Source of the DNA: Callorhinchus milii
Lineage: Eukaryota
Length of the DNA stretch: 64,000 nt
Reading direction: 5' to 3'
Assembly (NCBI RefSeq): GCF_018977255.1
Contig: NW_024704839.1
Span: 1 to 64,000 of the forward strand
Positions 4,855 to 41,599 of this stretch are shown one piece after another. How positions within the stretch are numbered: position 1 is the stretch's first letter; each line of letters opens with the position of its first letter. The translations under genes and the position numbers were made by a program. Under the pieces are notes generated by a model. That model saw only the letters and a list, made by a program, of their open reading frames with translations. It was not told the origin of the DNA and searched no databases.

Positions 4855-4899
4855 TATACCTGATGATGATTGCTTGTGTTGCAATCGAAACGTCGTATG
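4855..4899 (+). ncRNA. Minimal type-I hammerhead ribozyme motif (subfamily B)
   Basis: ATAC-CTGATGA(4860-4866)-T-GATTGC-TTGTGTT-GCAATC-GAAA(4887-4890)-CGTC/GTAT. Stems I and II pair, and cleavage is predicted after C4894. Confidence 0.75.
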
Positions 4900-5089
4900 C
4901 TAGTATTTAATTTATTATTTTTTCTTGATACGTGACTTTACCGAAATAACCAAAGAGTAGCACCCGCTAAGATAATGTGGAATTTCCACGAGTGCAGTAT
5001 GACATTTGTGAATGATGTTACCATGTAAACCGTTTCAAAGTGTGTTATGGTGATACATTGGTGTGTGCTGTCCTGGGTCCGTGAGTGTG

Positions 5090-5410
5090 CATAACGCAGA
5101 GAAGCCGTTCTGCTGAAAGGTGTACGGCCACAGGTTCCGCCAGCACTGCCACCGGAATATCCACCTGCGCAAGCATAGAGGCGAAAAGCCCTACCGCTGT
5201 AGTGCTTCTCGCAAAGTTTCAGTTCCCAGCAGCACCAGCAGATACACAACGGTGATAGACTGCACCGCTGCAGCGATTGCGGATGCGGGATCCCACAGCC
5301 CGCCGACCTGAGGGCAAACGAGCGCACGCACACGGGCGAGAAGCCATATGGCTGCGACATGTGTGGCCAGACCTTCACGCGCTCCACCGGCCTGCGCTTC
5401 CACCAACTTT
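5090..5410 (+). pseudogene. Decayed C2H2 zinc-finger array fragment
   Basis: HLRKHRGEKPYRC and HTGEKPYGCDMCGQTFTRSTGLRFH pieces lie in different frames with deletions. Confidence 0.7.
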
Positions 5411-5929
5411 TGCACGTGGAGGAAAATATTTAGCGGTGCTGTCGGGAAATCTTTTCGAGGCCGTCGTAGGTTTTCACATTTGTGCCATTTCACGCCACAT
5501 GCTGTGAATATTCTTCAATTCGTGCACTTTTGGGTTGTGCCGCGTGTTGTTCGCCATAGCACGTGTTAGTGGGAATTTCCCGGCATGTAGAGCGAAACGT
5601 CGGACATCGTGTTGAACAACGCGGAGTGGCACAACCCGAAAACGCTTAAAAATGTTCTACTGTTAAAAACAATGGGGGCATCTGAAATTTGCTCACAAAG
5701 TTCAACATGGAGTACGAAAAATAATCTTATCACGTATACGTGGGAAATTTGACAGCAACTCTTCTTCACAAAAACGCGACATATTCGTCAATAACACAAT
5801 CCTAAAAGTAAAATATATAATAGGCAAGGTTTTGGATATTGGTTGTTTTCCATACCAGATAAAGAGGCCAGATAGACTGAATGCATAAAAGTTGAAGACG
5901 ACAGTATACACAAGGCCGTGATGAAAGAT

Positions 5930-6300
5930 TTATTTTAAGAATGTTTCCAGATGAGCAATCTTAACTTGGAATATGTATCGCTGTGATGTATCCTTCGTAT
6001 TTGTGAATCGGGCATTGCATTGTTATATGTTGTATGGTCTGTTCTGGATGACCACAGTCGCACACTGGAGATTTTAATTTTCCATTTGTGCATCAGGTAT
6101 CCGCATCTCCCATGGTTTGTGCGGATGCATTTTAAGGTGGACCATGAGCTTCGTGGAAGATCAAAATTATTTATCTGCTTTGGATTTTTCACATGGTGTT
6201 TGTGAGTTCTGTTGAACTCCCTTCAGTTTTCCAAGCTTAATCGGGGTTGAATTCGCATTGCTAAAGGTTCAAGGAATTGGACCTGTCTTGCCTCACGGCA
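5930..6300 (-). mobile_element. Non-LTR retrotransposon C-terminal fragment (Vingi/Ingi-like)
   Basis: FDLPRSSWSTLKCIRTNHGRCGYLMHKW motif. It continues the 7082-7650 fragment on the same strand. Confidence 0.65.
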
Positions 6301-6302
6301 GA

Positions 6303-7081
6303 TGTGGAGCGTATGTTCACAGGAAGTTCCTGTTTTTTATGCTAATTTTGGTCACGTGACCAGGAAGTTACGATTTTAGATTTCCAATGTACCACGCGGG
6401 CGTCGGCCATTACATAGATAAGTCAAGATGGCGGCACGCATCGCATCTCAGTGAGACCACAGCCGCACTTGTCCATTGTGGGAGCTTAAGAAGCATTGTC
6501 TGTAAGTTGTTTATATTCCTATAATATTGGCAATGCTGTTGTAATGTTGGAATGACCGTTATAGTGATGTAAATGCCTTTATGGTGCCGTTAAGTTGTTG
6601 TAGTAAATACGAGGCCTAGTTAGTAACGAAGCCTGTGACTTTCCTTATTGTGGATGTTACTTGTGATTTAGTAGGTCGAGTCAGACTTGTGCCTATGTTG
6701 CGATCCTGAGAGTAAAGATGACGAAGTATCTCATCCACAGTTTAGTGTTATGTGTAATGCTGTACATTTGGGGTGCAGTGGGATGAATACACGATGTGCC
6801 TGTATGCAACGCACCGGCTTGTGCTTTTGTCTAGTTGTTCAGTGGTAATGTAGGGGCCTGGTCCGTCCAGGATCTATTGTTATCTAAGACAATGTTCTGA
6901 TGCTGTGGTGTTCATTGTGTTGGTGTTTCCGGATTATAACAGATGCTGTATCTGTGTTTTCTCACCAGTTTTACCTTGTTACAATCAATAAATGACGATT
7001 GGAGTTGGACGTTCATCCTGGCTCCGAGGATTTATTGAACGCAAGGTTATCTACTCGACTAGCGGTGCAACGCAGCGCACA
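6303..7081 (+). mobile_element. Probable solo LTR (~780 bp) nested in the LINE
   Basis: TG...CA ends with an imperfect terminal IR (TGTGGAGCG / CAGCGCACA) and AATAAA near 6987. It interrupts the LINE ORF. The TSD is only a partial match (GCAGA vs GCGAG). Confidence 0.5.
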
Positions 7082-7650
7082 GCGAGGCCGAGATAGGACC
7101 AAAATGGCTTGCATGACGTAATGCAATAGCGAGGGACGTTATTGAGGTCCTGATGAATGGGAAGGCGGCTGTTTTGCTCAATTCGCAGGATTTCCCGGAG
7201 GGTTGCAGAGTTGTGATGGATTGGGGAGAGACGTGACAGCACGGGAAGCCAGGGTGTTGGGGTCGACTTGAAGGTTCCAGTGGTACACTGCATTGCAATG
7301 TTCCATTGGACATTAACAAGTTGAGAGTGACTACTTCTGGTCCATACTGGTTCACAGTACTCGGCTATAGAGTACGCAAGGGCCATCATTGGTGTCCATA
7401 GCACTGGTGCTGATGCTCCCCAGCTTGTGCTTGCCAGTTTGTGGACCAGGTTGACCCTTGTTTTGGTTTTGGCGGCTACCTTTTTCATGTAGTCGCGGAA
7501 GGTTCGCGTACGGTCCAGCTTCATACTGAGATAGGTTGGAGTGGGGTTGTTGTTTCACAGTGTTGCCAGAGAAGGTCACTTTCAGAGTGTGCTGATGATT
7601 GGACAGGTGCTGATGATATGACAACTATTTCAGGACGATATTTGTAAGTG
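7082..7650 (-). mobile_element. Non-LTR retrotransposon RT C-terminal fragment (Vingi/Ingi-like), degenerate
   Basis: KLDRTRTFRDY...KLASTSWGAS...ALAYSIAEYCEPVW...TGTFKSTPTPWLPVLS. Confidence 0.75.
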
Positions 7651-13110: not shown

Positions 13111-13519
13111 CTACTGCAGTACAATTCCATTATCTATCCTACGACTACTCCCTGCCCTGCCCCACGGCCACAACCAGGACTACCCCTATCAGAATATATT
13201 CAGAATCAGAATATTGATTTAGACTGTGGGAATATTACGACCTATAAAGCTCCTTCTCACAGATGTCAAGTACATCACTGCCCCTACCCCTATCGCTACC
13301 CCAAACGATCAAGCAGAGTGGTGGGAATTCCCCATTCCCATAGCAGGGGCCAATCTATAAATGAAGACCAATGTAAGAATTATGTCCAGTACTGCTGGAC
13401 ATTATACTGGACATCCGTGAAAAAGAGCTTCATAGCTTATCGAATTTGAAAAACATCAAAGTCACTTCATGAGAACTTAACCGACACAAATATTCTTCAA
13501 GATGCACGTGGAGACTCAC

Positions 13520-13750
13520 AATCGGCTCTTGGATGACACGAAATGTTTCTCGAGATCTAACCCAGAATCATTCGTCCTTCCCTTTTCGCATTGGCTCACA
13601 CGATCCACCTCCACGATCTCGTCCATTTTAATCGATGCGTCCACTGCATCCGGTTCATTGTGACTAGCGTGGCTTTCGACCTTGGTGCCATCCTGAATCC
13701 ACTTGGAGCTCAAAGCCCCTTCAGGCGTGAGCCGGCGAACGGGATCCCAC
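13520..13750 (-). CDS. Kinase exon, subdomain XI (WDPVRRLTPEGALSSKWI) plus tail
   Basis: ggcAG acceptor, GTGAGT donor, phase 2-2. Confidence 0.75.
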
Positions 13751-14017
13751 CTGCCAAAATATAAACGGGGAATCGTCAGGGTTCAGTTACCGTCTACATT
13801 TCTTCTAGGTGTGGCACATGCAATTATTTACATTCATTGTGCTAACGAATGTAAGAAGGCACAAGGCCAGAAATATTGCCCTGTTATGACACAAAGCCAC
13901 TTCCTGTCAGTAAAACATCACTCTTAGTAGTGTGTACTCTTTTATGAAAGTGCTGATGGTGAACACGAAAATAATTATGAATTAAGATAATATGTAGACA
14001 GTGCAGTTATATCTTAC

Positions 14018-14135
14018 TCAAGGCATCCTTCGACGAAATCGATTATCTCTCTGTTCGTATTCCAAAGCTTTTTCTCAATAGAGGAGGTGTTTGGAAAGAC
14101 CTTCCTGCCGTCCACCCTGTGGCACCCATTCTTGT
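14018..14135 (-). CDS. Kinase exon, CMGC-insert region (DKNGCHRVDGRKVFP...IIDFVEGCLE)
   Basis: acacAG acceptor, GTAAG donor, phase 1-2. Confidence 0.7.
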
Positions 14136-14300
14136 CTGTGTTGGAGAGAAAATGAGTGAAACGAGTTCCGAGGAATAAGAACAAAGTACATTTCGATTTA
14201 AAGCTTTCGTGACTGCAGGGATTCATCTTCTTGGTTCTTTCGGTAAAGTCACGTAGAATGGAAATAATAAAATAATAAAAATAAAACATAATAAAATAAT

Positions 14301-14348
14301 TCTCACGACGTTTCGGCCACAACGCAAGCAGCCGTCCTCAGGTGAAGA
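14301..14348 (-). ncRNA. Minimal hammerhead motif (subfamily A, CUGAGGA core)
   Basis: Reverse complement reads TTCAC-CTGAGGA-C-GGCTGC-TTGCGTT-GTGGCC-GAAACGTC-GTGAGA. Confidence 0.7.
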
Positions 14349-14387
14349 CCAGGTCTGTAATTTGTATTGTTGGGAAGACAGACCTGG

Positions 14388-14436
14388 TCTTCACCTGATG
14401 ACGGCTGCTTGCGTTGTGGCCGAAACGTCGTGAGAA
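14388..14436 (+). ncRNA. Minimal hammerhead motif (subfamily A)
   Basis: TTCAC-CTGATGA(14395-14401)-C-GGCTGC-TTGCGTT-GTGGCC-GAAA(14422-14425)-CGTC/GTGAG. Confidence 0.75.
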
Positions 14437-14580
14437 TTATTTTATATGTTTTATTATTATTTTATTATTTCCCTTCTACGTGACTTACCAAAAGAACCAA
14501 GAAGAAGAACAAAGTACATTACGGCAATGCTTGCCTGAATAATTGTGACAACAGAAGTAGCAACCTGCCCTCCCACTCAC

Positions 14581-14640
14581 CCGTGGAAATGTGCATTCTG
14601 GTCGCAGCATCAATCATAGGACTGGTGGGAGACCAAGAAT
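14581..14640 (-). CDS. Kinase exon (ILGLP...PMIDAATRMHIST) with a 1-nt deletion
   Basis: cacAG acceptor and GTGAGT donor. It is 60 nt where 61 are needed, giving an in-frame TGA at ~14614-14616. Confidence 0.65.
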
Positions 14641-15218
14641 CTGTGCACAGGTCACAGTGAAATTAATATACATGGGTTAGGTCATTGGACTGTGTGTATC
14701 GTAAACATACATACAGTAGACTTCCTCAAATGTAAAGGTCTATAAAACTGAAACGTTTATTCCCAAGAACTGCACATCCTTTTACACCACTGCCAAATAG
14801 ATTTAATTTGTATTGGGTACTTAATTAACAAATATTGCCCTTTGAAGGTGACTTCAGGAACCTTCGGGACGAACAATGAACCCGAAGAATGGAAAGGGTA
14901 AAAGTCTGTCACTCTGAGTTATTATGACCAAGGCCAAATCACATCATACGTGTCCAACTAGTGTCTGATCACATTAAAGATATGTCTATTCTCTATGTAC
15001 ATACTGGCAGCAGAGCAACATTTGTTCCCATGGAATGAGGCCAAAAGTATGATTGCTCCACAGATTACTTGAACCGTGTATTGCAATCCAGGGCAGTCTC
15101 CTATATCGTTGTTAGCGACTAATGGACCATCACTCAGCATTAGCAGTGTGAGCCGGCTCAACTAAAACTAAGCCATAGGCTTCAAAATCATAAATAATGA
15201 GATTATATTTTGCCATAT

Positions 15219-15394
15219 TTCAGGTACCGTGATCATTCGGTCAATTGGATTTCCTGTTGCCGTGAAAAGTGACTCCCCAGAAGCGAGCTCGGCAATTATG
15301 CAGCCCAGGGACCACATGTCCACTGCGCAGGTGAGTTCGAGGCCCAGTAATATCTCTGGAGCCATGTACTCGAACGTTCCGAAAAATCCGAAAA
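15219..15394 (-). CDS. Kinase exon, subdomains VIII-X (FGFFGTFEYMAPE...DMWSLGCIIAEL...DRMITVPE)
   Basis: gtgcAG acceptor. The expected donor reads ATATGG, and there is a weak alternative GT donor after 15228. Confidence 0.85.
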
Positions 15395-16215: not shown

Positions 16216-16286
16216 GTATATCCACGAAGATTCACAAAGACACACAGAGACACACCCTCGCACGAAACACAAGTAAAACCACTCAC

Positions 16287-16950: not shown

Positions 16951-17228
16951 CTGCAAGACAAGATACCGTCAATGGTTATTTCCCTGCCACTTCTTGGTCA
17001 ATGCTTAGGCTCGCTTCATGAACTCGGGGACTTGTGTTTTACAATAGTTTAGGATTTTTATCATGTAAAACCAAATTAAAATTTCTCCCAGGGGAATGAT
17101 GATGAAACATGACCTGCATATTGGGTTTGAGAAATATAATAATATCAACTTATAACATGCACAGTAATCACTCACAGTAATATAAAGAGAAAATTACTCA
17201 GAGGTACGAGGAACCACAAACAGAAAAT

Positions 17229-17557
17229 TTCGATTTAAAACTTTCGTGACTGCAGGGATTCATCTTCTTGGTTCTTTCGGTAAAGTCACGTAGAAGGGAA
17301 ATAATAAAATAATAAAAATAAAACATAATAAAATACAATTCTCACGACGTTTCGGCCACAACCCAAGCAGCTGTCCTCAGGTGAAGAACAGGGCTGTCGG
17401 AAAGATTCGGACGCTGTCTTTCTGACAGCCCTGTTCTTCACCTGAGGACGGCTGCTTGCGTTGTGGCCGAAACGTCGTGAGAATGTTATTTTATTACGTT
17501 TAATCTTTATTATTTTATTATTTCCCTTCGACGTGACTTTACCGAAAGAACCAAGAA
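17229..17557. mobile_element. Palindromic Penelope-like insertion, hammerheads on both arms (17341-17388 minus, 17433-17483 plus)
   Basis: Same arms as the 14193 copy. Imperfect TSD CACAAACAGAAA / CACAAACAGGAA. Confidence 0.8.
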
Positions 17558-18483: not shown

Positions 18484-18668
18484 ACTCTTGGTTCTTTCGG
18501 TAAAGTCACGTATAAATATAAAATAATAAATTAAATAATAGCATACGACGTTTCGATTGCAACACAAGCAATCATCATCAGGTATTATTTAATTTATTAT
18601 TTTATCTTTATACGTGACTTTACCGAAAGAACCAAGAGTAATTCCTGCAGTCACGAAAGCTCCAAAAT
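18484..18668. mobile_element. Palindromic Penelope-like insertion with a minus-strand hammerhead (18542-18585, subfamily B)
   Basis: 14-bp TSD TAACGAGAAACATT at 18470-18483 and 18669-18682. Confidence 0.85.
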
Positions 18669-18884: not shown

Positions 18885-19265
18885 TGGGTGGTGACATGGC
18901 CTAATGGCAGTAGGATCCCCGCCTTTCGTCGAGGTTCATGGTTCGAATCCAGCAGCCTCCCTGATTAATGCAGCTCTAATAATAGCACGCACCGTGTCTG
19001 TCTCACAGCCGATGTCAAATTCGAAAATTACCCAAAAAATTACTTTAATTGCCGTTGTACAACTTAGGAATCATCGCCCCCCCCCCCTACTGGCAATCTA
19101 ATACCCCAGGTCACTGTTGCAAATGAGACGCATCCTGGTCTAATCTTAATTTTGGAGCTTTCGTGACTGCAGGAATTATTCTTTGGTTATTTCGGTAAAG
19201 TCACGTGACTTTACCGAAAGAACCAAAGAATAATGCATCCTGGTCTCTTAAGTTCTCACCTGCTC
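18885..19265 (+). mobile_element. tRNA-derived SINE, interrupted by the 19142-19234 insertion
   Basis: A box TGGCCTAATGG and B box GGTTCGAATCC. The 3' part resembles 20450-20530. Confidence 0.55.
19142..19234. mobile_element. Minimal loop-less palindromic Penelope-like insertion (no ribozyme retained)
   Basis: 12-bp TSD GCATCCTGGTCT at 19130-19141 and 19235-19246. Centre is AAAGTCACGTGACTTT. Confidence 0.85.
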
Positions 19266-24507: not shown

Positions 24508-24549
24508 TATATTATACGTATGCGAGTCCATATTATTATAAATCATATC

Positions 24550-24758
24550 TTCTTGGTTCTTTCGGTAAAGTCACGTAGAAGGGAAATAATAAAATAATAA
24601 AAATATAACATAATAAAATATTTCTCACGACGTTTCGGTCACAACACAAGCAGCCGTCTATGTTTTATTTTATTATTTTATTATTTCCCTTCTACGTGAC
24701 TTTACCGAAAGAACCAACAAGATGAATCCCTGCAGTCACGAAAGCTTTAAATCGAAAA
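24550..24758. mobile_element. Palindromic Penelope-like insertion (ribozyme truncated)
   Basis: 12-bp TSD ATAAATCATATC at 24538-24549 and 24759-24770. Confidence 0.8.
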
Positions 24759-24859: not shown

Positions 24860-25010
24860 ATCTTGATTTTAAGCTTTCGTGACTGCAGGAATCCATACTC
24901 TTTGGTTCTTTCGGTAAAGTCACGTAGGTATAAAAATAAAATAAATCACGACGTTTCGGGCGCAACACAAGAGTCCGTCATCAGGTGGGAAAGCATGGTC
25001 TGCTGCTGAT
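24860..25010 (-). mobile_element. Single Penelope-like arm with a hammerhead (24945-24988, subfamily C)
   Basis: Reverse complement reads CCCAC-CTGATGA-C-GGACTC-TTGTGTT-GCGCCC-GAAACGTC-GTGATT. Confidence 0.75.
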
Positions 25011-25209: not shown

Positions 25210-25562
25210 TCGATTTAAAGCTTTCGTGACTGCAGGGATTCATCTTCTTGGTTCTTTCGGTAAAGTCACGTAGAATGAAAATAATAAAATAATAAAACAT
25301 CATAAAATACAATTCTCACGACGTTTCGGCCACAACGCAAGCAGCCGTCCTCAGGTGAAGAACAGGTCTGTCCTAAAGGAGTTTTGAAACATGTTTAATA
25401 TTTATTCTTTTATTATTTCCCTTCTACGTGACTTTACCGAAAGAACCAAGAAGATGAATCCCTGCAGTCACGAAAGCTTTAAATCGTCGTGAGAATTATT
25501 TTATTATGTTTTATTTTTATTATTTTATTTCCATTCTACGTGACTTTACCGAAAGAACCAAG
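25210..25562. mobile_element. Three-arm (inverted plus tandem) Penelope-like insertion with a minus-strand hammerhead (25315-25362)
   Basis: TSD AAGTTGTAACACC(TCG) at 25197 and 25563. Confidence 0.8.
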
Positions 25563-26610: not shown

Positions 26611-26909
26611 TACTCTTTGGTTCTTTAGGTAAAGTCACGTAGGTATAGAATAAAATAAATCACGACGTTTTGGGCGCAACACAAGCGTCCATCATCAGGT
26701 GGGAAAGCATGGTCTGCTGCTGAGGTTTGAGATACACCCATCTCAAACCTTTTTAAAACAGTCTGCCTCAGCAGCAGACCATGCTTTCCCACCTGATGAT
26801 GGACGCTTGTGTTGCGCCCGAAACGTCTTGATTTATTTTATACCTACGTGTCTTTACCGAAAGAACCAAAGAGTATGGATTCCTGCAGTCACGAAAGCTT
26901 CAAATCAAG
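26611..26909. mobile_element. Palindromic Penelope-like insertion, subfamily C hammerheads on both arms (each with a point defect)
   Basis: 12-bp TSD ATTGTCAGTCTT at 26599-26610 and 26910-26921. Plus-strand CTGATGA at 26793-26799 and GAAA at 26820-26823. Confidence 0.85.
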
Positions 26910-27821: not shown

Positions 27822-27906
27822 TGATTTGAAGCTTTCGTGACTGCAGGAATCCATACTCTTTGGTTCTTTCGGGAACCTACGTGACTTCACCGACAGAACC
27901 AAAGAG
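27822..27906. mobile_element. Short palindromic Penelope-like insertion nested in a SINE
   Basis: 12-bp TSD TATTAACAGACT at 27810-27821 and 27907-27918. Confidence 0.8.
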
Positions 27907-31172: not shown

Positions 31173-32956
31173 TAGCCCCCCGAGGTGCCAGTCCCCGTCC
31201 CGGGTTGACTGGAGCACCTCGCTTGGGCCGCGCCCACGAGGAAACGTTGCGGGGTCCGGGGGATCCGTCCGGACCTGGTGGCTGGCCTCGGGGCGGGTGG
31301 TTCCGTCCTCTGTAGCTCCTGCGGCGGTCTCCTCCTCCACTCCAGCGGCTCTCCCCGTCCCCCGGCACCTGTGGGCTGGGGCACAAACTCAGCAGCGGAA
31401 GGGTTTAGTGGCCGTCGTCCGCGCCGTCTCCGGACTGGATCGGGGCGTCTCGGGGACCAGGCGGGGCCCATGTAGTGTGCGAGGCCCCCCAACACGAGGG
31501 GTGCGGGTACTCCGGGATTTCGGGGCTTTCGGGTGACGGAGTCCTCTCTCGCCGGGGCCGCTTTCCATGGTTTTAAGCGGCGGACATTGACCACCGTCTC
31601 TCGACCCCTCTCCCCGCCGTAAATTAGTACCGTCCAGGGGGATATCTGCCGCACCACGGTCCAGGGTCCCCGCCAGTAGGTCGTCAGTTTCCCCACCTGC
31701 CCGGCCCCGACGCGAGGGGTGTGTAGCCACACCTTAGCGCCTGTCAGGAATAAGGGGGGTTCCATGCGGGGTCGGGTGCCCTGTTCCTGCCGCCGATGCG
31801 CGGCTTCCCCTTGCGGGTATGCTCGGCCTCGGGCTTCTCGCAGGGTCTCCAACAGGTGTTCCACGGGGCGGCTTCCCTCCTCCGGCTGGGGGGAAGGGAC
31901 GCCGAATAGCAGATCTGCGGGTAAACGAGACTCACGGCCGAACATCATTAAAAACGGGGTTTGTCCCGTCGACGTGTGTACGGTGGTGGCGTAGGCGAAA
32001 AGGGCGTAGGGGAGGTGTTCGTCCCAATCCCGTTGATTTGCGGCCGCCATACGTTTGAGTTTCCCCGCTAGGGTCTGATTCATGCGCTCTACCATACCGT
32101 TCGCTTGGGGGTGATACGCTGTGGTTCGGTCCTTCTGGATTCCGAATTCTCGGCACAGTGCCTGGAACAGCTCGGCCTCGAACTCGCTACCCTGGTCGGT
32201 GAGGACTCGTTCCGGGATCCCGTGCTTGAGTACGTAATGTTCTACGAATGCCCGGGCCACCACCAAGGCCGTTTTATCAGGGATGGCCACTGCCACGGGG
32301 TAGCGGGTGAAATACTCTACTGCGACTAGAATATACCGGTTGCCTCGATGGGATCGTGGGAATGGCCCCTGTAGATCGATCCCGACCAGCTGATTCGTGC
32401 GGCTGACGCGGAACGGCCTTAGGGGTACCTGGTATCGTGCCGGTTTCGGCCCGCACTGCTGACAGGCGCGGCAGCCCTGTACCCAGGCCGCCACGTCTTG
32501 TGCCAATTTGGGCCAGAGATACTGGCGACGCAGGGTCTCTCGAGTGCGTCGTTCCCCATCGTGGCCCCCGAGTGGGTGGTCATGCACCAGCCGTAGCAGC
32601 TGGGGTCGCACCTGGGCAGGAACACAGATGCACCCCGGCTGGCCGGCCTCGGTTAACTCCCGTACCACTCCGTTCTGCACACACAACCGGGCATACAAAC
32701 CGCTCCAGGGTCCTGGTAGGGCGCTCTTTTCCTCCCGCAGTGCCGCCTCCACGGCCGCCAGATCCGGATCTCGCTGCTGGGTCTGTCTCAGCTGCTCGTC
32801 GTTCAGGCCCGGGAAGGCGCAGCCGACGTCCTCCTGGATCCGTCCGATCGGGTCCCGAGCCGCGGGTCCCGCGCTTGCCGGGCGGTCGACGGGATCCTCG
32901 GTGCCACCTGTGAGGGTCTCTGTGGCGCACACTGCACTCTCTCTCGCTGGGGGGGG
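31067..32956 (-). CDS. pol: Gypsy integrase portion of pol
   Basis: HDHPLGGH...CRACQQC zinc site, GIDLQGP / LTDQGSEF / NGMVERMN DDE triad, and a WRGPW GPY/F-like module. The frame is open only from 32956 downward. Confidence 0.9.
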   Translation of the reverse strand, partial: PPPARESAVCATETLTGGTEDPVDRPASAGPAARDPIGRIQEDVGCAFPGLNDEQLRQTQQRDPDLAAVEAALREEKSALPGPWSGLYARLCVQNGVVRELTEAGQPGCICVPAQVRPQLLRLVHDHPLGGHDGERRTRETLRRQYLWPKLAQDVAAWVQGCRACQQCGPKPARYQVPLRPFRVSRTNQLVGIDLQGPFPRSHRGNRYILVAVEYFTRYPVAVAIPDKTALVVARAFVEHYVLKHGIPERVLTDQGSEFEAELFQALCREFGIQKDRTTAYHPQANGMVERMNQTLAGKLKRMAAANQRDWDEHLPYALFAYATTVHTSTGQTPFLMMFGRESRLPADLLFGVPSPQPEEGSRPVEHLLETLREARGRAYPQGEAAHRRQEQGTRPRMEPPLFLTGAKVWLHTPRVGAGQVGKLTTYWRGPWTVVRQISPWTVLIYGGERGRETVVNVRRLKPWKAAPAREDSVTRKPRNPGVPAPLVLGGLAHYMGPAWSPRRPDPVRRRRGRRPLNPSAAEFVPQPTGAGGRGEPLEWRRRPPQELQRTEPPAPRPATRSGRIPRTPQRFLVGAAQARCSSQPGTGTGTSGGYVMPPPRSRSAGTKSPTSPPPSNGADPASPSPHLT

Positions 32957-35439
32957 TCAGTGGCCGCGGCCTCTCGGGGGTCCGTTGCCTGCCGGCAGCG
33001 TCCCCCCGTGAAACAGGGGCAGGCCTCCTCCGCCCTTGTCTCGGCGTACACCGTGGGCCGCCTCGACAAGGCGTCCGCGTTTGCATGCGTCCGGCCAGCC
33101 CGATACTCGATTTGCAGGTTGTACTCCTGCAACTGCGCCAACCAACGGGCCATCTGCCCCCGCGGCTCCTTGAATGTAAGAAGGAACTGAAGAGCATAAT
33201 GGTCAGTGCGTACGCGACATCTCCTGCCGTACAAATACGGCCGGAACTGCTTACATGCGAAAATCACGGCGTACAACTCTTGGCGGGTCACGCAATAGTT
33301 CAGCTCGGCCCCACTCAAGGTCCGGCTGGCGTACGCGATGACTCGTTCCGTCCCATCCTGTACCTGTGACAACACCGCGCCCAGCCCGCTGCTGCAGGCG
33401 TCGGTGTCCAAAATAAAATCGGTGGTAAAATCGGGGAAAGCGAGGGTGGGGGCGTGGGTGAGGTGGTCTTTGAGAGTGGTGAAGGCCGTCTGGCAGGCCC
33501 CCGTCCACTGATAGGGGTGCTTAGGGGAAGTGAGTTGGGTGAGGGGGCGTGCAATCTCGCTGAATCCCTTTACAAATCGACGATAATAGGTGGCAAGCCC
33601 CAAAAATGATCTGATCTCCGTCAGATTCCTTGGCCGTGGCCACTCCACTACGGCGCGTACCTTCTCCGGATCGGTGTGCACGCCTGCCTCGCTGACGCGA
33701 TGCCCGAGGTACCCCACCTCGCGTTGTGCGATGTAACACTTACGTGGCTTGAGCTTGAGATGAGCCGCTCGCAGTCGCTGGAACACCTCTCGAAGCCTGG
33801 ACCAATGCTCAGACAAAGATCTACTGAACACTATCACATCGTCCAAGTAAATCAGGCACTGTTCCCATTGCAAGCCCCGCATCACCAACTCCATCAGCCG
33901 CTGGAACGTCGCGGGCGCATTGGTGAGTCCGAACGGGAGTACTCGAAACTCGAATAGCCCCATCGGGGTGGTGAATGCGGTTTTCGGCCGATCCTCCTCC
34001 GCCATCTCCACCTGCCAGTACCCGGACGCGAGATCGAGGGTGGAAAAATATCGCGCTCCGGCGAGGCTGTCGAAGGTGTCGTCGATGCGGGGTATAGGGA
34101 AGGCATCGCCGAGCGTGACTGCATTTAGTTTACGGTAATCGACGCAGAACCGTGTTGACCCATCCTTTTTCGTTACTAGTACCACCGGGGCTGACCAGGG
34201 GCTCGCCGAGGGCTGAATTATGTTATCGCGAAGCATGTCCCCAACTGCCTCTTTGATTTGGGCGCGTTCGGGTGCGCCCACTCGGTACGCAGGGAGTTTG
34301 ATGGGTCGGGCTGCACCGGTGTCAATTTGGTGCTTAACAAGATCGGTCCGACCCACGTCCGAGTCGTGTTCACTGAATACGTCGGCATACTCCCGCAGTA
34401 ACTCGCGCAGCCGATCGGCCTCTCCCTTAGGTAAATCCGCCCATGGTACATGTAACGCGTCGAGCAGGGGAACGACCTCGGCTCGGGGAGTCGGGCCGAC
34501 TCGCCAGGCCAGGTCCTGGTCACCCTCAGGACGCCCGGGGTCCTCAGCCCAGAGTGCGAACACCGAGTCGTTAGAGTGGCGTGCGTGCAGGGGGTGTACT
34601 GTGGCTATCGGGGTGCGCCGTCGCAGTATCGCTGGGGTATTGTGGGGGTTAAACATCCGCATAAACAATCGGTCCCCATCTGCGTTTACCAACGTGGCGG
34701 ATCCCACAACCCCATACCGTTTTGCCAACTCCGGGTGAGGAGTTAGCATTACCTCCCCTGATGGTCGGAGCGCGGGGTCGGTGGGGGATGTTGCCACCGG
34801 CACCAGCATCTCGGTGAGCGGGCCGATGGTGACTGTCGTCGCCAGGATAGCGGCCACAGGTGCAAAGCGGCGGCGCGTTGGTTCTCGTCCCAGGAACGGT
34901 ATCCGCTCGCCGTTGCTCTCCATGGTGGCGCATCGCTGGCGGGGTTGCACGTTGAGTCCCAACCGTTCTAGGAGGTCGGTGCCTGCGATACACTCGTGAC
35001 ACAACGCACTCGACACGTAGAACTCCTGCGTGCACACCTGGCTGCCTATGCGGACCTCTAGGGTGGCTCTCCCCAGCAGCCCCATTCCGGCTCCGCTCGC
35101 AGTGTGCAGCGCGCGGTCCGGGGCCTGCAGGTGACGCACGTCGACCCCGATCGCGCTGCAGTGCGCTGCGCTCACGAGCGAGGCCACCGCCCCCGTGTCC
35201 AGCAGGATTCGGGTACGCACTCCGTTTACCTCCCCTTCCACCAGCGACGTGGCCCCCGTGATCCCCGCCACCAGCTCCCGCAGCCAGTCGCCAGGAGTCA
35301 CCGTTTCTGTGGGCGTTGTTGCTGGAACCTGTGTGGAGATCACTCGCTCGCCATTATTCTCATTATCGTCTATTTGTATCGGGACCGCGTCGATTGCACC
35401 CCTAGTTGGTCCGCTTTCTAGGGGGCGTTGGAGTTTAAC
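32957..35439 (-). CDS. pol: Gypsy pol: protease, RT and RNase H (entered by -1 frameshift from gag)
   Basis: LLDTGA protease, FCVDYRKLN...LPFGL...YLDD RT, and LDTDACSSGLGAVL...TDH...NADALSR RNase H. Confidence 0.95.
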
Positions 35440-36683
35440 CCCCGCGTCTGCCTAGCTCGGGTGATTTCAGGACAGTCTCTCACTAGATGCCCTCGGCGGT
35501 CGCACATATAACATGCCCGGGGAGGGGGGGCGGCTCCGTAGCGGGTCCCCTGTCCGCTCCCTCTCCCTCCCCCAGTACGCAGTTGTCCCACATCGGACTC
35601 TAATTGGGCTACTCTCCCGGCCAGCCCCCCTACGGTCGAGCGTAGTTCCCCCATCTCAGACTGGAGGGTCTTCATATTTTTATTCGCTTCCTCGCGTACC
35701 TGGGTTACCCTCTCACCTACGTGGGTTACCCTCTCCCCTACTTGGGTTACCTTACCGTCCATTCGGTCTACTCGGCCAGCAATATCTCCCATGCCGGTCT
35801 GTAACCCAGCTACCCAACCCGGGGTTGTCTCGCGGGGTTTCTGGGCCTCTCTTGCCCGTCTCCCCATGGGGCTGGCGGGCTCATCCTCATCCTCCTCCTC
35901 GTCAGGGATCAGGCTCGCCACGGTGTACTCCTGTCCCGACCCTCGGAGCTGCGCGCGTTCGCTGGAGAGCTCCTCACACTCCAGCGCTTGCTCGACTAGG
36001 GTATCGAAAGGGAGGCCTGCGCTACTCTTTTTGGGCTGCCACCACGCGGTGCGAGCTAGGTACCTGAGTAGCTTGTCTGCAGCTAGCGCGTCAATGACCT
36101 CCTTCGAGAACTCTGGACGGGCGATCCGGGTTAGTGATCGCACGTCCTCAGCGTAGTCTCGGAAGTCCTCGCCAGTTTGGCGTCGGCGCGCCTCTAAGGC
36201 GGTCTTCGCCCGTATCGCGTTGCGCGTGCCGAAACGCAGGTCTAATCTACGCATTAGTTCTTCTAGTTGGGTTTGCGCGCTTTCGGGTAGTGCCTCTACA
36301 AAGTCGGCTGCCCGCCCGTCTAAGTTTAACGTAAGATGTCGCAACGCCTGCGCGTCCGACCAGCCATTAAGCTCTTTAGCCCCTATGATATTACGGGAAA
36401 ACGCTTTCCATGTAGGGGTCCCCTGGCCGGTGAACACATGCCTTACCTTTGCGTGGAGTAGCGCGCCACCTTCCCGTGAAGATGTGAGGGTTCGTCCCAC
36501 TTCTGGCACCAAGTTGTTGGGGCCGCTGGTCCCCGGAGTCCCTCCCTGCTCCGTGCCTATGGCAGGGGCTCCGCCGTGCGCCGACCCCTCGCTGCTCTGC
36601 GAGCAGCTGCTGCCGTCGCTGGGCTCATCGCCCGACGGCTCCCCTCCCTGGTCCGTCCCTCCGCGAGCTCGTGTGAGAGGCAT
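35418..36683 (-). CDS. gag: Gypsy gag with CCHC zinc knuckle
   Basis: ATG at 36681-36683 lies inside the 5' LTR. Motifs RRRQTGEDFRDYA and CYMCDRRGHLVRDC. Confidence 0.9.
   Translation of the reverse strand: MPLTRARGGTDQGGEPSGDEPSDGSSCSQSSEGSAHGGAPAIGTEQGGTPGTSGPNNLVPEVGRTLTSSREGGALLHAKVRHVFTGQGTPTWKAFSRNIIGAKELNGWSDAQALRHLTLNLDGRAADFVEALPESAQTQLEELMRRLDLRFGTRNAIRAKTALEARRRQTGEDFRDYAEDVRSLTRIARPEFSKEVIDALAADKLLRYLARTAWWQPKKSSAGLPFDTLVEQALECEELSSERAQLRGSGQEYTVASLIPDEEEDEDEPASPMGRRAREAQKPRETTPGWVAGLQTGMGDIAGRVDRMDGKVTQVGERVTHVGERVTQVREEANKNMKTLQSEMGELRSTVGGLAGRVAQLESDVGQLRTGGGRGSGQGTRYGAAPPPRACYMCDRRGHLVRDCPEITRARQTRGLNSNAP
36496..36511 (-). promoter_or_regulatory. Primer-binding site, tRNA-Leu-like
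   Basis: TGGTGCCAGAAGTGGG sits 3 nt after the 5' LTR. It is complementary to ...CCCACTTCTGGCACCA, resembling vertebrate tRNA-Leu 3' ends. Confidence 0.75.
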
Positions 36684-37888
36684 AGCTCGCCGCACGCCCT
36701 CGTTCACCTGCAGACGCTGCGTTGTCTCTCCACGGATCACGCGCTATTAAACGGGGGTCGGGGGCGAACGACGCTGCCCTCACACTGCGCGAGTCCCGGC
36801 GGCGACAGACGGATCGGGGACCTGCGGACGCACCGACCCCTTCACCCACACTACGAGCGCACACACCTGCACACACGCGACACCCACTCGTGCGCCGCTC
36901 TACGCAGCGCTCACTCACGTGGTGAACCACAGTGTACACACGCGCACCCACACGCTCACACTGCACGACAATATCACGCGAGACCACGCTTCGCTATTAA
37001 TGATTTATTATCTGATACCTGGTAATTTAATGTTAAATCAGTGAGTCGACGAGGCTGGCCTACGCTGATACCTTTATACCTATTCCCGATTCATCTGCTA
37101 TGATTCTAATTCACCTACTTACTTCCTGCTGGATGCCCACGGCGGTTCGTTGATCCCGTGCTCGCAGCGCACCTCGATGCGTCTCACGGACGATCGGGTC
37201 GCTGGACTGGAGAGCGTCCTGTCGCCTGGCGCTGGAGAGAAGAGAGCTATTTTCCCTCTGCGCCCCTCTATTTATCCTCCCTACCTCAAAGGGGATGCTG
37301 CGCTAAACAATGGGCTCGCGATCCTCTGGCACGCGCACGGCGGTTCTGGGCGCTGTTGATATGCTAATCAGTGTGCTGCGTGCAAGGCGTAAATCCTACT
37401 TAATCCCTTACCCTCCCTAACAATGGGGCCTGCGCGCTCAAGCGCAATTATCCCAACCCTCCATGACTATGCGCAACAGCCCCTGTGACCCCGCTATTCA
37501 TGCTGTCCCGTGCCTCCCCTGCTCGCCCCGTCGACCCGTGGGAGTGTGTGTGGGGGGAATGCGCCTCAACCGCGGTGGCCGAATGCCCCACGCCGCGACC
37601 ACACCATATTAAGGCCGGCCGCAGCGCCGCGGTGCCACGTAGCACGGGGGAGGTCATCCAATCCCCTGATCGCCGGAAACCGTGAGAATTAATCCCGATA
37701 AGGGTCTCTCGGATAAAAACCGGTCGGCCAGGCGACCTCCCCTCGGAGCTCTATGGGGGGGGGGAAATGAGTGCGGGTGTGTTCATGTGAGGTGAGGTGA
37801 GGGGGACGCGGGGTCGGCTCCGTTGCTTGGTGGTGGCGAGGTCGGGGATTTGGTGCCTGCCGAACGGCTTCGTGGCGGCGGCATCACA
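36515..37888 (-). repeat. 5' LTR (1374 bp)
   Basis: Direct repeat of 29797-31172 at offset 6718. Confidence 0.95.
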
Positions 37889-38273
37889 GTAGCATTAAAG
37901 GATTCCTTGGATTAATTCTGGGGTAAGGAAAGAGTTGGTTATGGCAAGGTCTTTGCTAAGCTAGGGCTCGTATTGTATTGCATTAGGACTAGGTTTTATT
38001 ACGAAAGGGGCTCGGGATTTGGTTTTGCCTTCTTCTTTCGCAGAGCAACAACTACAATTTCACATTCAGGTGGTCAAGCCAGATAGATTTGAGACTGGGG
38101 ATTCGTGAAGGATTAGCATTACGGTTACCACAAACACTCGCTATGTATGTTTCAGTCAAGGCTTTCTGTTCAAGGTTATTACTTGAGCCAAGATAACGGC
38201 TTGAGCTTCGCACATGGTGTTATATCCAACCCTCGACTCGGCGGCAATTATCCCAGCATCACCGCCACCGCCC

Positions 38274-38981
38274 CTACGAGAGCTTGTAGCGTCGGTGGAC
38301 GTTGAGGTGGCTTTTGAGGCTGCTCAGGTCGAGGAATGCACGATTGCACTCCGAGCACTGGAAGGGCTTCTCGCCCGTGTGCATGTACTGGTGACGCTTG
38401 AGACTGCAGTAGTATGAAAAGTTCTGCCCGCACATGCTGCAGCGGTACGGCTTCTCGCCCGTGTTGCGTGCGCTGGTGCGACTTAAGGTGGGCGCTCTGC
38501 GAGAACGCCTGTCCGCACGTCGCGCAGCGGTACGGCCGCTCGCCCGTGTGCGTGCGCAGGTGCGTCTCGAGGTTGCCGCGCTGCGAGAAGCGCTGGGCGC
38601 ACACGCTGCACCGGAACGGCTTGTTGTCTTCACCGCCCGCAATCGCCGGCACGGGAACCGGCAGCATGCGCCGCCGCCGCACCAGCTTAAAGTTCGGCAC
38701 GCGGTACGCGGCGGCGGCAGGAGGCAGAGTGTCGCTCCTGGACGGTGCCTCGTCCTGCCTGTCAATGTGGTCTTCAGTGAGCGGCTTGGGCAGGTAAGCG
38801 GCACACATGGGCGGGACCGTGCAGCCAGTGTCAATTTGTATTTTGTCGACCGGCAGCTGCTGCTGTTGTTGCTGCTGCTGCTGTTGAAGCCAGGGATAGG
38901 AGTCAACATTGGTTGCATTCGTTAGGTCCAGTCCCATCTCCTGAAGCGAGGTCACTTGTTGGATGACAAAGCCCGAATTAC
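38274..38981 (-). CDS. Zinc-finger gene last exon: poly-Q plus 4 C2H2 fingers (+1 frameshift near 38464)
   Basis: cccaAG acceptor. KPFRCSVC..HTGERPYRCATC.. then, in a shifted frame, GEKPYRCSMC..HTGEKPFQCSEC..HRRYKLS*. Confidence 0.85.
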
Positions 38982-39214
38982 CTTGGGAAAAATAATCAGA
39001 GAAGTCACTTTAGACGTCATATTGTGGATATGTTTTATTTTATGGCCACGACAGGGCAAAATCAATTCCTTCACCCACCCGCACTGACCAGGAACAATGA
39101 AGTATGTTCAAATAACCCCCATGATCTGACCAACGTGGGGTTATCTTCATTCAGCAGCGGATTGACAAAAGGGCAGTACTTGTCCATTAGGCATGCGCGT
39201 CTGTCTTTGTCTTG

Positions 39215-39385
39215 AGGGGGAGCAGTGGCGTAGTGGTTAGCGCACTGCAATACCAATCTGGCGACATGGATTTGATTGCCAGCCATGGCGAAAATCAGTA
39301 TCTAAGGATTCTTGAAACGGTCCTGGGACCCTCCACCCAGGTTGATTTGGCCTTAAATGAGTACCTGTTGCAGTGTGATAATGGC
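39215..39385 (+). mobile_element. tRNA-derived SINE in an intron
   Basis: A box TGGCGTAGTGG, degenerate B box, and a CCACCCAG...AAATGAGTACCTG core. Confidence 0.5.
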
Positions 39386-39589
39386 ACTGGATTGGAGAAA
39401 CAAAGGCACGAATATAATTGGAGACAATTTTAACCACGGGACATTTCGCCGTATACGAAAAGCAAAAAACATTCCCACACAAACAATTGAGTGCACGTAT
39501 CTGCGTGAGAATCAACATTAATCGATGAATGCTTGCATCGTCACATCTCCACGCGGTAAGACATTTGTTTATTTTCAACTCATCTTTAC

Positions 39590-39676
39590 CTCCGCACGCG
39601 TCTCTTTCTATCCTGGGCGGCGTCTGGCTGGGGCTGGAGTCTCTCTGGTCCGACGTGGGACTCTGATGATCACCGT
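39590..39676 (-). CDS. Zinc-finger gene internal exon (DGDHQSPTSDQRDSSPSQTPPRIERDACG)
   Basis: ttcAG acceptor, GTAAAG donor, 87 nt, phase 1-1. Confidence 0.65.
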
Positions 39677-40785
39677 CTGAATGGCAGAAGACAACGGACG
39701 TGTGGATTAACGCAGACGTTTAAAAATGGCACTGCTGCATCTCAGGATGAGCCAGGGGAAGTTCTTTCTCACAGGTGCCCAGCCCGAAGCTTGGGCTGCG
39801 ATGGCGGATAATTACAGAAGACTTTACGTAGATCAAGTGAACGATCGTGTGTAAACGTGAACAAAACAACAGAAGATGGAAAGAGCAATCAGAGAAAATG
39901 TAAATGAACTGCCCTCCCCCCCCCGCCACCCCCACTTTTATCCTTTCGTCAGTTGAGATAAGACAGACCCAGAAGAGGAGAGGTCGTCACCCCAACACAT
40001 AAAGCCGCATGTATGTTATATGATTTATAGCATGGTCCATTTCCAAGTCCCCTCCCACTATACCCGATCTCCCCCTAGAATGTTGGTTACTTCCTCCCGG
40101 CTCATCTTCCCCCCCCCCATAAACATAAGCTCCCATTCCCCCCCCCCCCCCGTTAGGGTGGGGTAGCGAGCATTCCTTCCCCACACCTATACATGTTCAA
40201 GTGCCAAAAGTCCCCCCCCCCGCCACCCTTGGTTTTTCTGTACCCCTCCGCAGAAATCATCGACACGTTTTATCGGGCTTGTGCGCTTACCATAATAAAA
40301 AAATGCATAAAATGTAAATTTAAAAAAATGAACAGCAATCGTTCAACATTATTGAGGATGAATTACACTTGCACGTACACGTGGTCCTCCGCACGTGTCT
40401 GTTTCTATCCTGGGCGGCACATGACCACATGTGTACACATGTACAGCCATTTTTGTCAAGCCATTGCTGGAAGAGGGCCTCCACACGCCGTGTCCGTCAC
40501 AGGGGTCCTTCAACCAACCATACTTCACCGCGCTGATGAGTGCACGCCTCTGAAGGTTTTGTAATGCGTTCTACCACTGGAGTCTGCATTCAACGATCAT
40601 TTCTAAAACTGTTTGTTCCATCTTCAAGATTTTTCCTCGTCTTAGTTTGCTATTCTATCAAACCTTGTCATTTTTTCATAATCACATCATATTACTAAAA
40701 CCCTCGTCTCCTCAAATCAGCCAATCACAGGGGGCGACAGATAGGATGGGACAGTGTACACTTTTATTCGTCTTAAAGTACTCAC

Positions 40786-40878
40786 CAGCGCAGCTTGCCT
40801 CGGTTTTGATCATGTGCAGCGACGGGTTTGGGCTGCAGTCTCCTGCCTCTGATGAGGCCCGGGTGTGCCCATCATTTT
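40786..40878 (-). CDS. Zinc-finger gene internal exon (ENDGHTRASSEAGDCSPNPSLHMIKTEASCA)
   Basis: cacAG acceptor, GTGAGT donor, 93 nt, phase 1-1. Contains the IKTE SUMO-consensus motif. Confidence 0.7.
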
Positions 40879-40945
40879 CTGTGTAGGCCAAAGAGCAAGG
40901 CACACAAACATTTGGGGAGGGGGAGAAATGAACAATGATCAGTGA

Positions 40946-41172
40946 ATTTTGATTTAAAGCTTTCGTGACTGCAGGGATTCATCTTCTTGGTTCTTTCGGT
41001 AAAGTCACGTAGAAGGGAAATAATAAAAGAATAAAAATAAAACATAATAAAATGTTATTCTCACGACTGCTTGTGTTGTGGCCGAAACGTCGTGAGAATT
41101 GTATTTTATTATGTTTTATTTTCATTATTTTATTATTTCCCTTCTACGTGACTTTACCGAAAGAACCAAGAA
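40946..41172. mobile_element. Palindromic Penelope-like insertion (ribozyme 5' core lost)
   Basis: 12-bp TSD AATGATCAGTGA at 40934-40945 and 41173-41184. Confidence 0.85.
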
Positions 41173-41599
41173 AATGATCAGTGACGTAAGCGTTCCGGCC
41201 AGGTGGTTCAGCAGTAGAGCAAGCGGATCGCCATCGGGAGTTTGGGAATTTTATATCCTGGTCGGTGGAATGACTTGGCCATCATCCCTCCGGGATCAAT
41301 AAAATGAGTACGACTTTGTAGGGAAGTTAACAATTGTTGTTCTATAATAGCCTGGCCCCCGCCATAGGAATATGGAATATTCACCATTGGATCAGTGCTG
41401 TAAAAAGAGATGAGCACTGCCTCAATGCTTGCTTTGGCTAATATTTGGCAGAAATACGACCACGTAAGTGTTTTTTTTCATCAGTTTGAAATGATTCTGC
41501 CAAAAGAGCAGGTAGTTGTATCTGGCTCAAAAACGTTTTTTTATAGACTTGACAAATGAGGTTGAAAAGCGTGGGGAAATGTTAAATACCCCGCCTGGT

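Follow-up and report, generated by a model that had tools for sequence, protein, structure and literature searches.

What kind of mobile element leaves short, palindromic, hammerhead-bearing repeats, and how do two copies of the same end come to lie head to head in one insertion? The question is raised by a family of repeats dispersed through the window (the whole 64,000-nucleotide stretch of DNA that was analysed), the host of which is, judged from its sequence, a lamprey: all 11 host proteins match lampreys only. An nhmmer profile of the repeat arm found 21 arms in the 64 kb, all of them at 11 loci. A preliminary description had ascribed one common arm sequence to 11 copies; an arm is present at all 11 loci, but the arms form three subfamilies (A, B and C) and not one. 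Nine of the loci are inverted repeats, as had been said of most copies, and represent inverted, truncated copies of the pseudo-LTR (pLTR) type; loci 4855 and 24860 are single arms and locus 25210 has three arms. The inverted copies measure 85-350 bp in total, too short to retain an open reading frame (ORF), and their centres differ copy by copy, which agrees with the earlier account of variable centres, from loop-less to long. These repeats are probably the extreme 3′ termini (pseudo-LTR and tail) of retrotransposons of the Penelope/Poseidon type, two heavily 5′-truncated copies being joined head to head between target-site duplications (TSDs) of 12-16 bp. The individual loci, with one example each of the 3′ domain and the hammerhead, are the following.

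4855..4959, plus strand: subfamily C single arm with a complete minimal hammerhead, an AT-rich spacer and a short end, without tail or TSD.
14193..14504: subfamily A inverted pair (tailed arm minus, short arm plus) with two complete hammerheads; TSD 14177-14192 and 14505-14520, 16 bp.
14193..14253, minus strand: example of the 3′ domain, a 7-bp stem around CCGAAAGA and an A-rich loop with the short end, then AAAGC, then the tail.
14390..14434, plus strand: example of the minimal type I hammerhead, with stem I, CUGANGA, a bulged pyrimidine, a 6-bp stem II, a 7-nt loop, GAAA-C-G-U-C and a predicted cut after C17.
17224..17557 (locus 17229): subfamily A inverted pair with two hammerheads, the tailless arm exceeding the other by 12 nt at the centre; TSD 17215-17223 and 17558-17566, 9 bp exact or 12 bp with one mismatch.
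18484..18668: subfamily C inverted pair with a hammerhead only in the tailless (minus) arm; TSD 18470-18483 and 18669-18682, 14 bp.
19142..19234: subfamily C minimal inverted pair without hammerhead, its centre a 4-nt self-complementary overlap; TSD 19130-19141 and 19235-19246, 12 bp.
24550..24758: subfamily A inverted pair, the tailless (minus) arm reaching into hammerhead stem II and the tailed (plus) arm shorter; TSD 24538-24549 and 24759-24770, 12 bp.
24860..25005, minus strand: subfamily B single arm that has both the hammerhead and the tail; no TSD was detected.
25213..25562 (locus 25210): subfamily A three-arm copy, with a tailed (minus) arm bearing a hammerhead, about 18 nt of filler, a tailed (plus) arm and a tandem tailless (plus) arm whose start precedes the predicted cleavage site by 2 nt; TSD 25197-25212 and 25563-25578, 16 bp, with an ambiguity of 3 nt at one end.
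26611..26909: subfamily B inverted pair that extends furthest upstream, to about 55-60 nt beyond the hammerhead on its 5′ side, with G12 lost from the left hammerhead and the first stem-I pair lost from the right; TSD 26599-26610 and 26910-26921, 12 bp.
27822..27906: subfamily B minimal inverted pair without hammerhead, the longer arm being the tailless one; TSD 27810-27821 and 27907-27918, 12 bp.
40946..41172: subfamily A inverted pair, the tailed (minus) arm ending 3 nt before the predicted cleavage site and the tailless (plus) arm reaching into stem II; TSD 40934-40945 and 41173-41184, 12 bp.

The two ends of an inverted copy are never identical. In each of the nine, a tailed end is paired with a short one, the offset being 29-41 nt; past a conserved AACCAA, short ends fall at 1-8 nt and tailed ends at 33-44 nt. 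The extension reported on one arm is one-sided in all nine, with a span slightly wider than the 30-35 nt first given, and the short ends do stop near one common point, as had been noted. In public contigs, heterogeneous AT-rich flanks cluster at the tail end (24757, 24859) and at the short end (24895), among the 24 loose ends listed of 2104. Exact TSDs of variable length, 12-16 bp, flank eight of the nine inverted copies (8/11 loci), as many as had been described; an identical search returned a direct repeat of at least 12 bp in 3 of 150 random pseudo-elements, and the same search found none at the single-arm loci 4855 and 24860. The length of some TSDs carries an uncertainty of 2-3 nt, because the element's own continuation overlaps six of the ten scorable ends (of 18 ends, eight were unscored). 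The TSDs are richer in AT than their surroundings (67% vs 57% locally). No empty target site was seen.

Small size and inverted arms are also what a MITE or foldback DNA transposon would show, with a hammerhead-like string present in its terminal inverted repeats by chance; the family is very abundant (134,921 contigs in one public run), and a hAT transposase is found 2.7 kb away from the last copy. No arm, however, flanks the hAT ORF, each copy has a different centre, single arms and a tandem arm exist, and the hammerhead covaries (see below). In place of the identical termini and fixed short TSD of such transposons, there are offset ends in all nine inverted copies and TSDs of no fixed length. 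A MITE or foldback transposon was rejected on these grounds, is extremely improbable overall, and had been discounted in the preliminary description as well.

The hammerhead itself is complete and minimal at 7 of the 11 loci. The family's description as hammerhead-bearing applies fully to these; loci 24550 and 40946 have a partial motif without the CUGANGA strand, and loci 19142 and 27822 have none. In an alignment of 11 rows, which included a sequence from another animal (L125), 16 core and loop columns are almost invariant and 86% of cells are paired. Five of the 11 hammerhead pairs, in both stems I and II, show compensatory (two-sided) change, with nine such cells observed against 2.3 in shuffles (0/500), and six slid registers all scored lower. 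A search of Rfam matched no hammerhead model; its 20 matches were all sub-threshold, 18 of them to miRNA models on the hairpins, plus one more and a snoRNA. Within these stubs the hammerhead would appear to be a passenger: its activity is predicted to require a dimer or protein aid, and in palindromic copies a hammerhead in read-through RNA would sit buried inside a long hairpin.

The stem of the 3′ domain is invariant among the lamprey arms bar one mismatch. Its stability is not greater than that of shuffles (z 0.06, -1.07 and -0.88), and the fold predicted in L125 and in two further sequences (L152, L153) differs from it. An in-frame ATG, the only candidate, lies within the loop in A and B and is absent in C; A and B also have an ES[FL]K match, and this evidence is significant on the discovery set only. 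When the tail was scored as an ORF start, 3-13 of 1000 shuffles did as well on the discovery set, where C was no better than shuffles (105 and 596 of 1000); on an independent set the figure for B was 58 of 1000 and A was in a different register. The tail of A and B might just represent the start of an ORF.

An origin from Penelope-like elements (PLEs) is very likely, and the preliminary assignment to this group is supported by a lamprey Poseidon hammerhead of like geometry, the priming stem-loop of a lizard Poseidon and the published inverted-plus-tail architecture. In L125 a minimal hammerhead and CCGAAAGA occur together with the same tail motif and a short arm in inverted orientation. In L152 and L153, both unrelated PLE ORFs that match RT and GIY-YIG, a minimal hammerhead and then a 7-nt complementary pair follow in the same order, and the ORF stops 140-210 nt upstream of the hammerhead; stubs of the present size would therefore carry no coding sequence anyway. 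We infer a parent PLE with RT and GIY-YIG. Among the window's 206 frames Pfam detected neither domain of a PLE, tblastn of 235 PLE proteins against the window gave no match at E≤1e-3, another search gave one at E 0.009, and no lamprey-labelled protein occurred among the 240 PLE-search matches listed.

The preliminary description had left a choice between 3′-end-only PLE products and a non-autonomous family. PLE ends are favoured here, with A and B looking like the ends of coding elements, and a non-autonomous status is possible mainly for C. The latter would correspond to a template that is a short, non-coding, PLE-derived RNA (about 200 nt, SINE- or retrozyme-like) mobilised in trans by a PLE protein, a reading that is unlikely for the family as a whole and most plausible for C, which has neither the ATG of A and B nor an ORF-start score better than shuffles. 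All 21 arms end within about 60 nt upstream of the hammerhead, as such a template would predict, but subfamily A runs on past its longest arm as one shared sequence (in 228, 64 and 14 contigs of three public runs) with no fixed 5′ end seen, and the spacing in L152 and L153 would leave the stubs non-coding in any case. Non-autonomous PLE derivatives are known (Chlamys, PMC8557442; animal retrozymes, bioRxiv 10.64898/2026.07.22.740005). At 25486, and in public contigs for 5 of the 15 joints listed of 1351, the tail is linked head to tail with a site immediately 3′ of the hammerhead; these joins, however, lie in the AT-rich spacer, a natural endonuclease target, and no tandem array with two consecutive hammerheads is present.

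For the PLE ends themselves, we regard two priming events, rather than fold-back, as the probable cause of the inverted structure. A PLE protein, presumably with RT and GIY-YIG, would nick both target strands 12-16 nt apart, and both 3′-OHs would serve as primers for reverse transcription of element RNA, one starting at the tail end, the other about 30-40 nt upstream, in the loop of the 7-bp stem, often assisted by 2-3 nt of pairing. Both cDNAs would end after 30-190 nt, short of any coding sequence, and would then be joined, through microhomology of 0-4 nt or a short filler, and filled in.

Target-primed reverse transcription followed by fold-back, as first proposed, proves insufficient. Among the nine inverted copies the longer arm is the tailless one in five, the tailed one in two, and equal or unclear in two. 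In those five (17229, 18484, 24550, 27822 and 40946) the tailless arm extends further 5′ and holds sequence missing from the tailed arm; fold-back cannot produce them, and as sole mechanism it is excluded for these copies. A tailless cDNA that folded back would have no template for the tail, and the 5′ break points of the two arms are independent of each other. Arm identity is 94.3% within a copy and 94.2% between copies, an equality also expected if every difference post-dates insertion. In four of the five subfamily A copies the arms differ at sites whose two alleles both recur at other loci, an example being 24581, read as G>T, at 9-17% of depth across four public runs.

A single priming from the same PLE origin, in which one cDNA folds back and endonuclease resolution sets the second end ("EN-mediated resolution" in the wording of PMC8557442), would suit the loop-less centre of 19142 on its self-complementary 4-mer and the centre of 14193, a natural small hairpin upstream of the A hammerhead; three near-centre variants, moreover, occur in both arms of a single copy (14193 or 17229) and in no other. 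These variants would be explicable by local fold-back or gene conversion. Against the longer tailless arms and the family-wide polymorphisms that separate arms within a copy, single priming is very unlikely.

Two primings may also have been coupled, as argued from the one tail and one short end of all nine copies, with their independent break points. We tentatively propose, as a reading less probable than its opposite, that each stub is the fossil of two coupled primings by a dimeric Penelope protein on two RNA copies, at the tail on one strand and the loop on the other; that the 7-bp stem, CCGAAAGA and AAAGC form a priming signal conserved between lamprey and lizard; and that C, its start codon lost, is a non-coding parasite with hammerhead and signal only. 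This reading has no precedent in the literature searched, which took in few subscription papers and no Repbase/Dfam entries.

Truncated PLE ends in inverted arrangement, bearing a tail and a minimal hammerhead, are already known, a lamprey example included. The residual value is mechanistic, since the inverted-plus-tail insertion process is called undefined in the PLE literature consulted, and the stubs provide a cheap natural test set for it. A stem-loop common to the lizard element points to an RNA signal; coupled priming, if true, would supply a concrete mechanism and a minimal cis element for this structure. The stubs also matter for annotation, because such hairpins are easily taken for MITEs or microRNA precursors.

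In L1 twin priming, two target-strand primers give rise to an internal inversion between intact TSDs, the two cDNAs spanning adjacent, non-overlapping parts of one RNA. Two primers and intact TSDs would be alike here, whereas both cDNAs would span the same 3′ region from two fixed starts. Endonuclease-positive PLEs are described as an inverted 5′-truncated copy with a 30-40-bp tail at one end (PMC8557442), and Pen2a as having a 31-bp tail and 9-10-bp TSDs (PMC3846280). Their insertion units share with ours the inverted truncated copy, the one-sided tail of about 30-40 nt, variable TSDs, strong 5′ truncation and partial tandems (PMC8557442; PMC3846280); the lamprey-host halves differ in being too short for an ORF (85-350 bp in all), and TSDs of 12-16 bp compare with 8-10 bp in the rotifer examples given there. 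Non-LTR retrozymes (bioRxiv 10.64898/2026.07.22.740005) are likewise short, non-coding and PLE-related with a type I hammerhead. Their working definition in that source is a tandem array with two consecutive hammerheads, one per head-to-tail unit, whereas the elements here are dispersed head-to-head pairs; no hammerhead was matched in the window's tandem arrays, and neither unit of the sole tandem join (25210) has the hammerhead core.

Pairs of minimal hammerheads on opposite strands, 100-700 bp apart, were reported in 2014 (PMC4209133). The Petromyzon marinus example, AEFG01030262, is placed at the 3′ end of an incomplete Poseidon ORF and is labelled "Poseidon, partial" (PMC4209133, Table S1, Fig. 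S3). Host group, 6-bp stem II, the same 7-nt loop, bulged pyrimidine, GAAA-C-G-U-C and a CAC/GUG-type stem I are alike, and a comparison by eye gives 36 of 43 letters shared with A, 36 with C and 33 with B. As printed it is identical to none of the three, and its upstream flank differs, so that it represents a sister subfamily. Finally, PAc, the Poseidon of Anolis carolinensis, encodes a protein that cleaves and extends both strands, initiating at two sites that bound the tail, hammerhead cleavage being unnecessary in vitro (PMC11167929). According to this account its ORF starts inside the hammerhead, whereas the lamprey-host spacer is, from sequence alone, non-coding. AT-rich targets and a hammerhead followed by a stem-loop are common to both, and the two RT start sites of PAc likewise bound its tail. 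Compared by eye (Fig. S1B of that paper), the PAc stem-loop has the same layout, a 7-bp stem with four identical and three compensatory pairs, an inner CCGAAAGA and AAAGC behind.

The repeats studied here, eleven loci named by their start positions, are most likely end stubs of Penelope/Poseidon elements. A profile search of the window finds the repeat unit, or arm, at all eleven loci of the preliminary description (11/11), with 21 arms there and none elsewhere in the window. Nine loci are inverted repeats of 85–350 bp, locus 25210 having an extra third arm in tandem, and two (4855 and 24860) are single arms. The arm is common to all loci as first described, but it is not one sequence, since the arms split into three subfamilies distinguished by hammerhead stems, spacer and tail (A, five loci; B, three; C, three). 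Exact flanking direct repeats of 12–16 bp had been claimed for eight copies, and eight were found; the flanks of 17229 match over 9 bp exactly, or 12 if one mismatch is allowed, and the same search found no flanking direct repeat at the single arms 4855 and 24860. A direct repeat of 12 bp was reached by 3 of 150 random pseudo-elements searched in the same way.

From 5′ to 3′, the arm is made up as follows:

Element 1: upstream sequence, up to about 60 nt
Element 2: minimal type I hammerhead, with stem I, CUGANGA, a bulged pyrimidine, a 6-bp stem II with a 7-nt loop, and GAAA-C-G-U-C
Element 3: AT-rich spacer, of a length particular to the subfamily
Element 4: 7-bp stem around CCGAAAGA and an A-rich loop
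Element 5: AAAGC plus a few further bases

When 10 window arms are aligned with L125, a metagenome contig used for comparison, 86% of hammerhead stem cells are paired and 5 of 11 hammerhead pairs show two-sided changes. Cells with such changes number 9 against 2.3 in shuffles (0/500), a result to be taken as support and not as a probability, since kinship of sequences can beat such shuffles. All slid registers score lower than the chosen one. The description of the family as hammerhead-bearing holds in full at 7 of 11 loci, the motif being partial at two and absent at two, and individual copies have core positions missing. The stability of the 3′ stem is not above that of shuffles and the stem does not vary among the window arms (the host being taken here as lamprey), so that the case for it hangs on a single comparison with the Poseidon element PAc of the lizard Anolis carolinensis.

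In all nine inverted copies, one end lies 1–8 nt and the other 33–44 nt past AACCAA. The one-sided extension reported earlier, with the other arm stopping at a near-constant point, thus corresponds to two end classes, tailed and short, one of each per copy (9/9). MITEs, already rejected in the preliminary description, are ruled out by offset ends, varying lengths of the target site duplications (TSDs) and varying centres. Arms beside a DDE transposase had been named in advance as evidence against a Penelope-like element (PLE); the studied arms do not flank the window's hAT-family transposase (43921–45818, two frames, with a zinc finger and a C-terminal dimerisation domain). The copies, chiefly those of subfamily C, might instead have their source in a non-autonomous short RNA; tandem arrays of a retrozyme type are absent.

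Target-primed reverse transcription is established for non-LTR elements. It has also been demonstrated in vitro for the lizard PLE, whose protein cuts both strands of the target and extends each of them. Reverse transcription by this protein begins at two sites that mark the limits of the tail, and one of these lies inside an AC-rich stem-loop (PMC11167929). Target-primed reverse transcription agrees with the variable TSD lengths, the AT-rich targets (67% against 57%) and the overlaps of 2–3 nt seen at 6 of the 10 scored ends of the studied copies.

If one cDNA folded back, as originally proposed, the tailless arm should be contained within the tailed one. This prediction fails in five copies, where the tailless arm is the longer (17229, 18484, 24550, 27822 and 40946); two copies (25210 and 26611) have a longer tailed arm, and in another two (14193 and 19142) the arms are equal or the comparison is unclear. 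Arm identity is 94.3% within a copy and 94.2% between copies, and in 4 of 5 A copies the arms differ at sites where both alleles are present elsewhere. Because the tailless arm is not nested and the arms are discordant at polymorphic sites, we infer two primings instead of fold-back: each nicked strand would be primed once, at the two start sites, and both products would then be joined, either by microhomology of 0–4 nt or by a short filler. Three variants, each confined to a single copy (14193 or 17229) but present in both of its arms, argue in the opposite direction, for some local copying close to the centre. All nine inverted copies have one tailed and one short end, an outcome with a probability of about 0.002 under a free even-odds choice per end, which suggests that the two primings are coupled. 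Within the literature searched, no published two-priming or template-switch model for PLEs was found.

Hammerhead cleavage as a source of truncation is not supported, as 2 of 21 arms stop 3 nt or less from the cut site and 12 cross it. With so few arms ending there, and with cleavage found dispensable in the lizard study (PMC11167929), the hammerhead has no demonstrated role. At 25486–25489, and in contig joints of 24609–24625 to 25209–25214, the tail end is joined head to tail to positions immediately 3′ of the cut site; these joins may stem either from a template jump from cleaved RNA or from insertion into an older copy's AT-rich spacer.

Four public sequencing runs were mapped onto 24400–25800, with 6,194 to 134,921 matching contigs per run, the depth sums not being copy numbers. 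Among the matches listed, both end classes have heterogeneous AT-rich flanks, and a single common continuation lies upstream of the A hammerhead. The contig numbers and the flanks at both ends indicate that the family is very abundant and its two end classes general. No empty-site joint was present among the best 15 of 1351 joints; junction contigs from other runs extend 17–27 letters into the repeat, below the 31-letter threshold.

The matches of a neighbouring protein are to lampreys only (11/11). The genes and other elements of the window include:

15171–15437 and 16755–16997, minus strand: protein-kinase exons, with several studied copies nearby
15171–16997 (minus), 5203–5430 (plus) and 38251–39009 (minus): protein-kinase exons and C2H2 zinc-finger genes
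29797–37068, minus strand: Ty3/Gypsy-type LTR retrotransposon, with long gag, protease-RT-RNase H and integrase frames, the latter two not sharing a reading frame
17656–17908, 18091–18198 and 43021–43148: another palindromic repeat family, with arms of about 120 nt
46036–53175 and 63504–63803: 364-bp tandem array of 19.6 units, 99–100% identical

The Ty3/Gypsy-type element looks very recent, its LTRs being 100% identical over at least 554 bp. Neither a TSD nor a hammerhead match was found in the second palindromic family; a 17-nt string of this family recurs at hammerhead stem II in copy 40946. The tandem array, likewise with no hammerhead match, is a satellite or an assembly artefact. Of the sequence words of 13500–20500, roughly three quarters are present in small public runs, a hint that the region may itself exist in several copies.

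PLE coding sequence was found in 0 of 206 frames of the window (low-complexity and tandem regions excluded), and tblastn of 235 PLE proteins against it gave 0 matches. An in-frame ATG is present in subfamilies A and B, where the encoded peptide ends in ES[FL]K; C is without ATG. An ES[FL]K-like start occurs in 13 of 46 near-full-length PLE ORFs, on which the A/B tail-peptide match was equalled by 3–13 of 1000 shuffles, and an [HRK]ES[FL]K-like start in 2 of 235 PLE proteins, neither of which resembles the tail peptides further. As the match is weak on an independent set, the likeness of these predicted peptides to PLE ORF starts is only suggestive.

Searches for relatives returned little. Rfam at E ≤ 1 gave no hammerhead family and 20 matches (19 miRNA models and one scaRNA, all below gathering score), which were set aside as generic hairpin matches. 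An exact 24-mer of the arm was absent from viral and metagenome contigs (0 and 0), and a hammerhead pattern search of viral contigs gave 0 loci. The stem-tail pattern had 76 loci in viral contigs, taken as chance since none had an upstream hammerhead; the loop-tail pattern had 68 loci (one viral, the other 67 from metagenomes), of which three had a hammerhead-like string and L125 alone was convincing. Patterns built on what we take to be the RT motif gave 0 and 5 loci in viral contigs, no PLE among them, and six in genomes (two PLE ORFs and four bacterial RTs). No lamprey-labelled protein was among the 240 matches listed from two PLE-query protein searches.

Outside contigs offer closer comparisons. 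At 615–890, L125 holds a PLE-type inverted end pair with a minimal hammerhead, CCGAAAGA, the same tail motif and an inverted short arm; its flanking duplication has decayed. L152 (334–2625, minus strand) and L153 (448–1482, plus strand) hold animal-type PLE ORFs that match RT and, weakly, GIY-YIG, with a minimal hammerhead 140–210 nt downstream of the ORF, a gap that stubs of the studied size would not bridge to reach coding sequence. Both are short contigs in two Poribacteria genome bins, most likely as host DNA contamination, and L153 is an inverted insertion in its own right.

The PLE assignment agrees with three published features. PLE insertions often have an inverted 5′-truncated copy and a 30–40-bp tail at one end (PMC8557442; PMC3846280); minimal hammerheads occur in metazoan PLE pseudo-LTRs, often paired on opposite strands 100–700 bp apart (PMC4209133); and the lizard Poseidon protein acts on both target strands and uses two start sites (PMC11167929). 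Every vertebrate lineage examined, lamprey among them, is reported to have PLEs (PMC4350176), and a supplement places a Petromyzon marinus hammerhead motif at the 3′ end of an incomplete Poseidon ORF, with a geometry equal to that of the window arms (PMC4209133); by eye, 36, 33 and 36 of its 43 letters match those of A, B and C. Elements of this kind, their architecture and a lamprey example are already published, and Repbase/Dfam entries may already contain the subfamilies. The two-priming inference and the lamprey–lizard conservation of the priming stem-loop may, within the literature searched, be unpublished. With the lizard letters taken from Fig. S1B of PMC11167929 and read as linear sequence, the lizard and window 3′ stem-loops share a 7-bp stem of four identical and three compensatory pairs, the same CCGAAAGA inside it and AAAGC behind.
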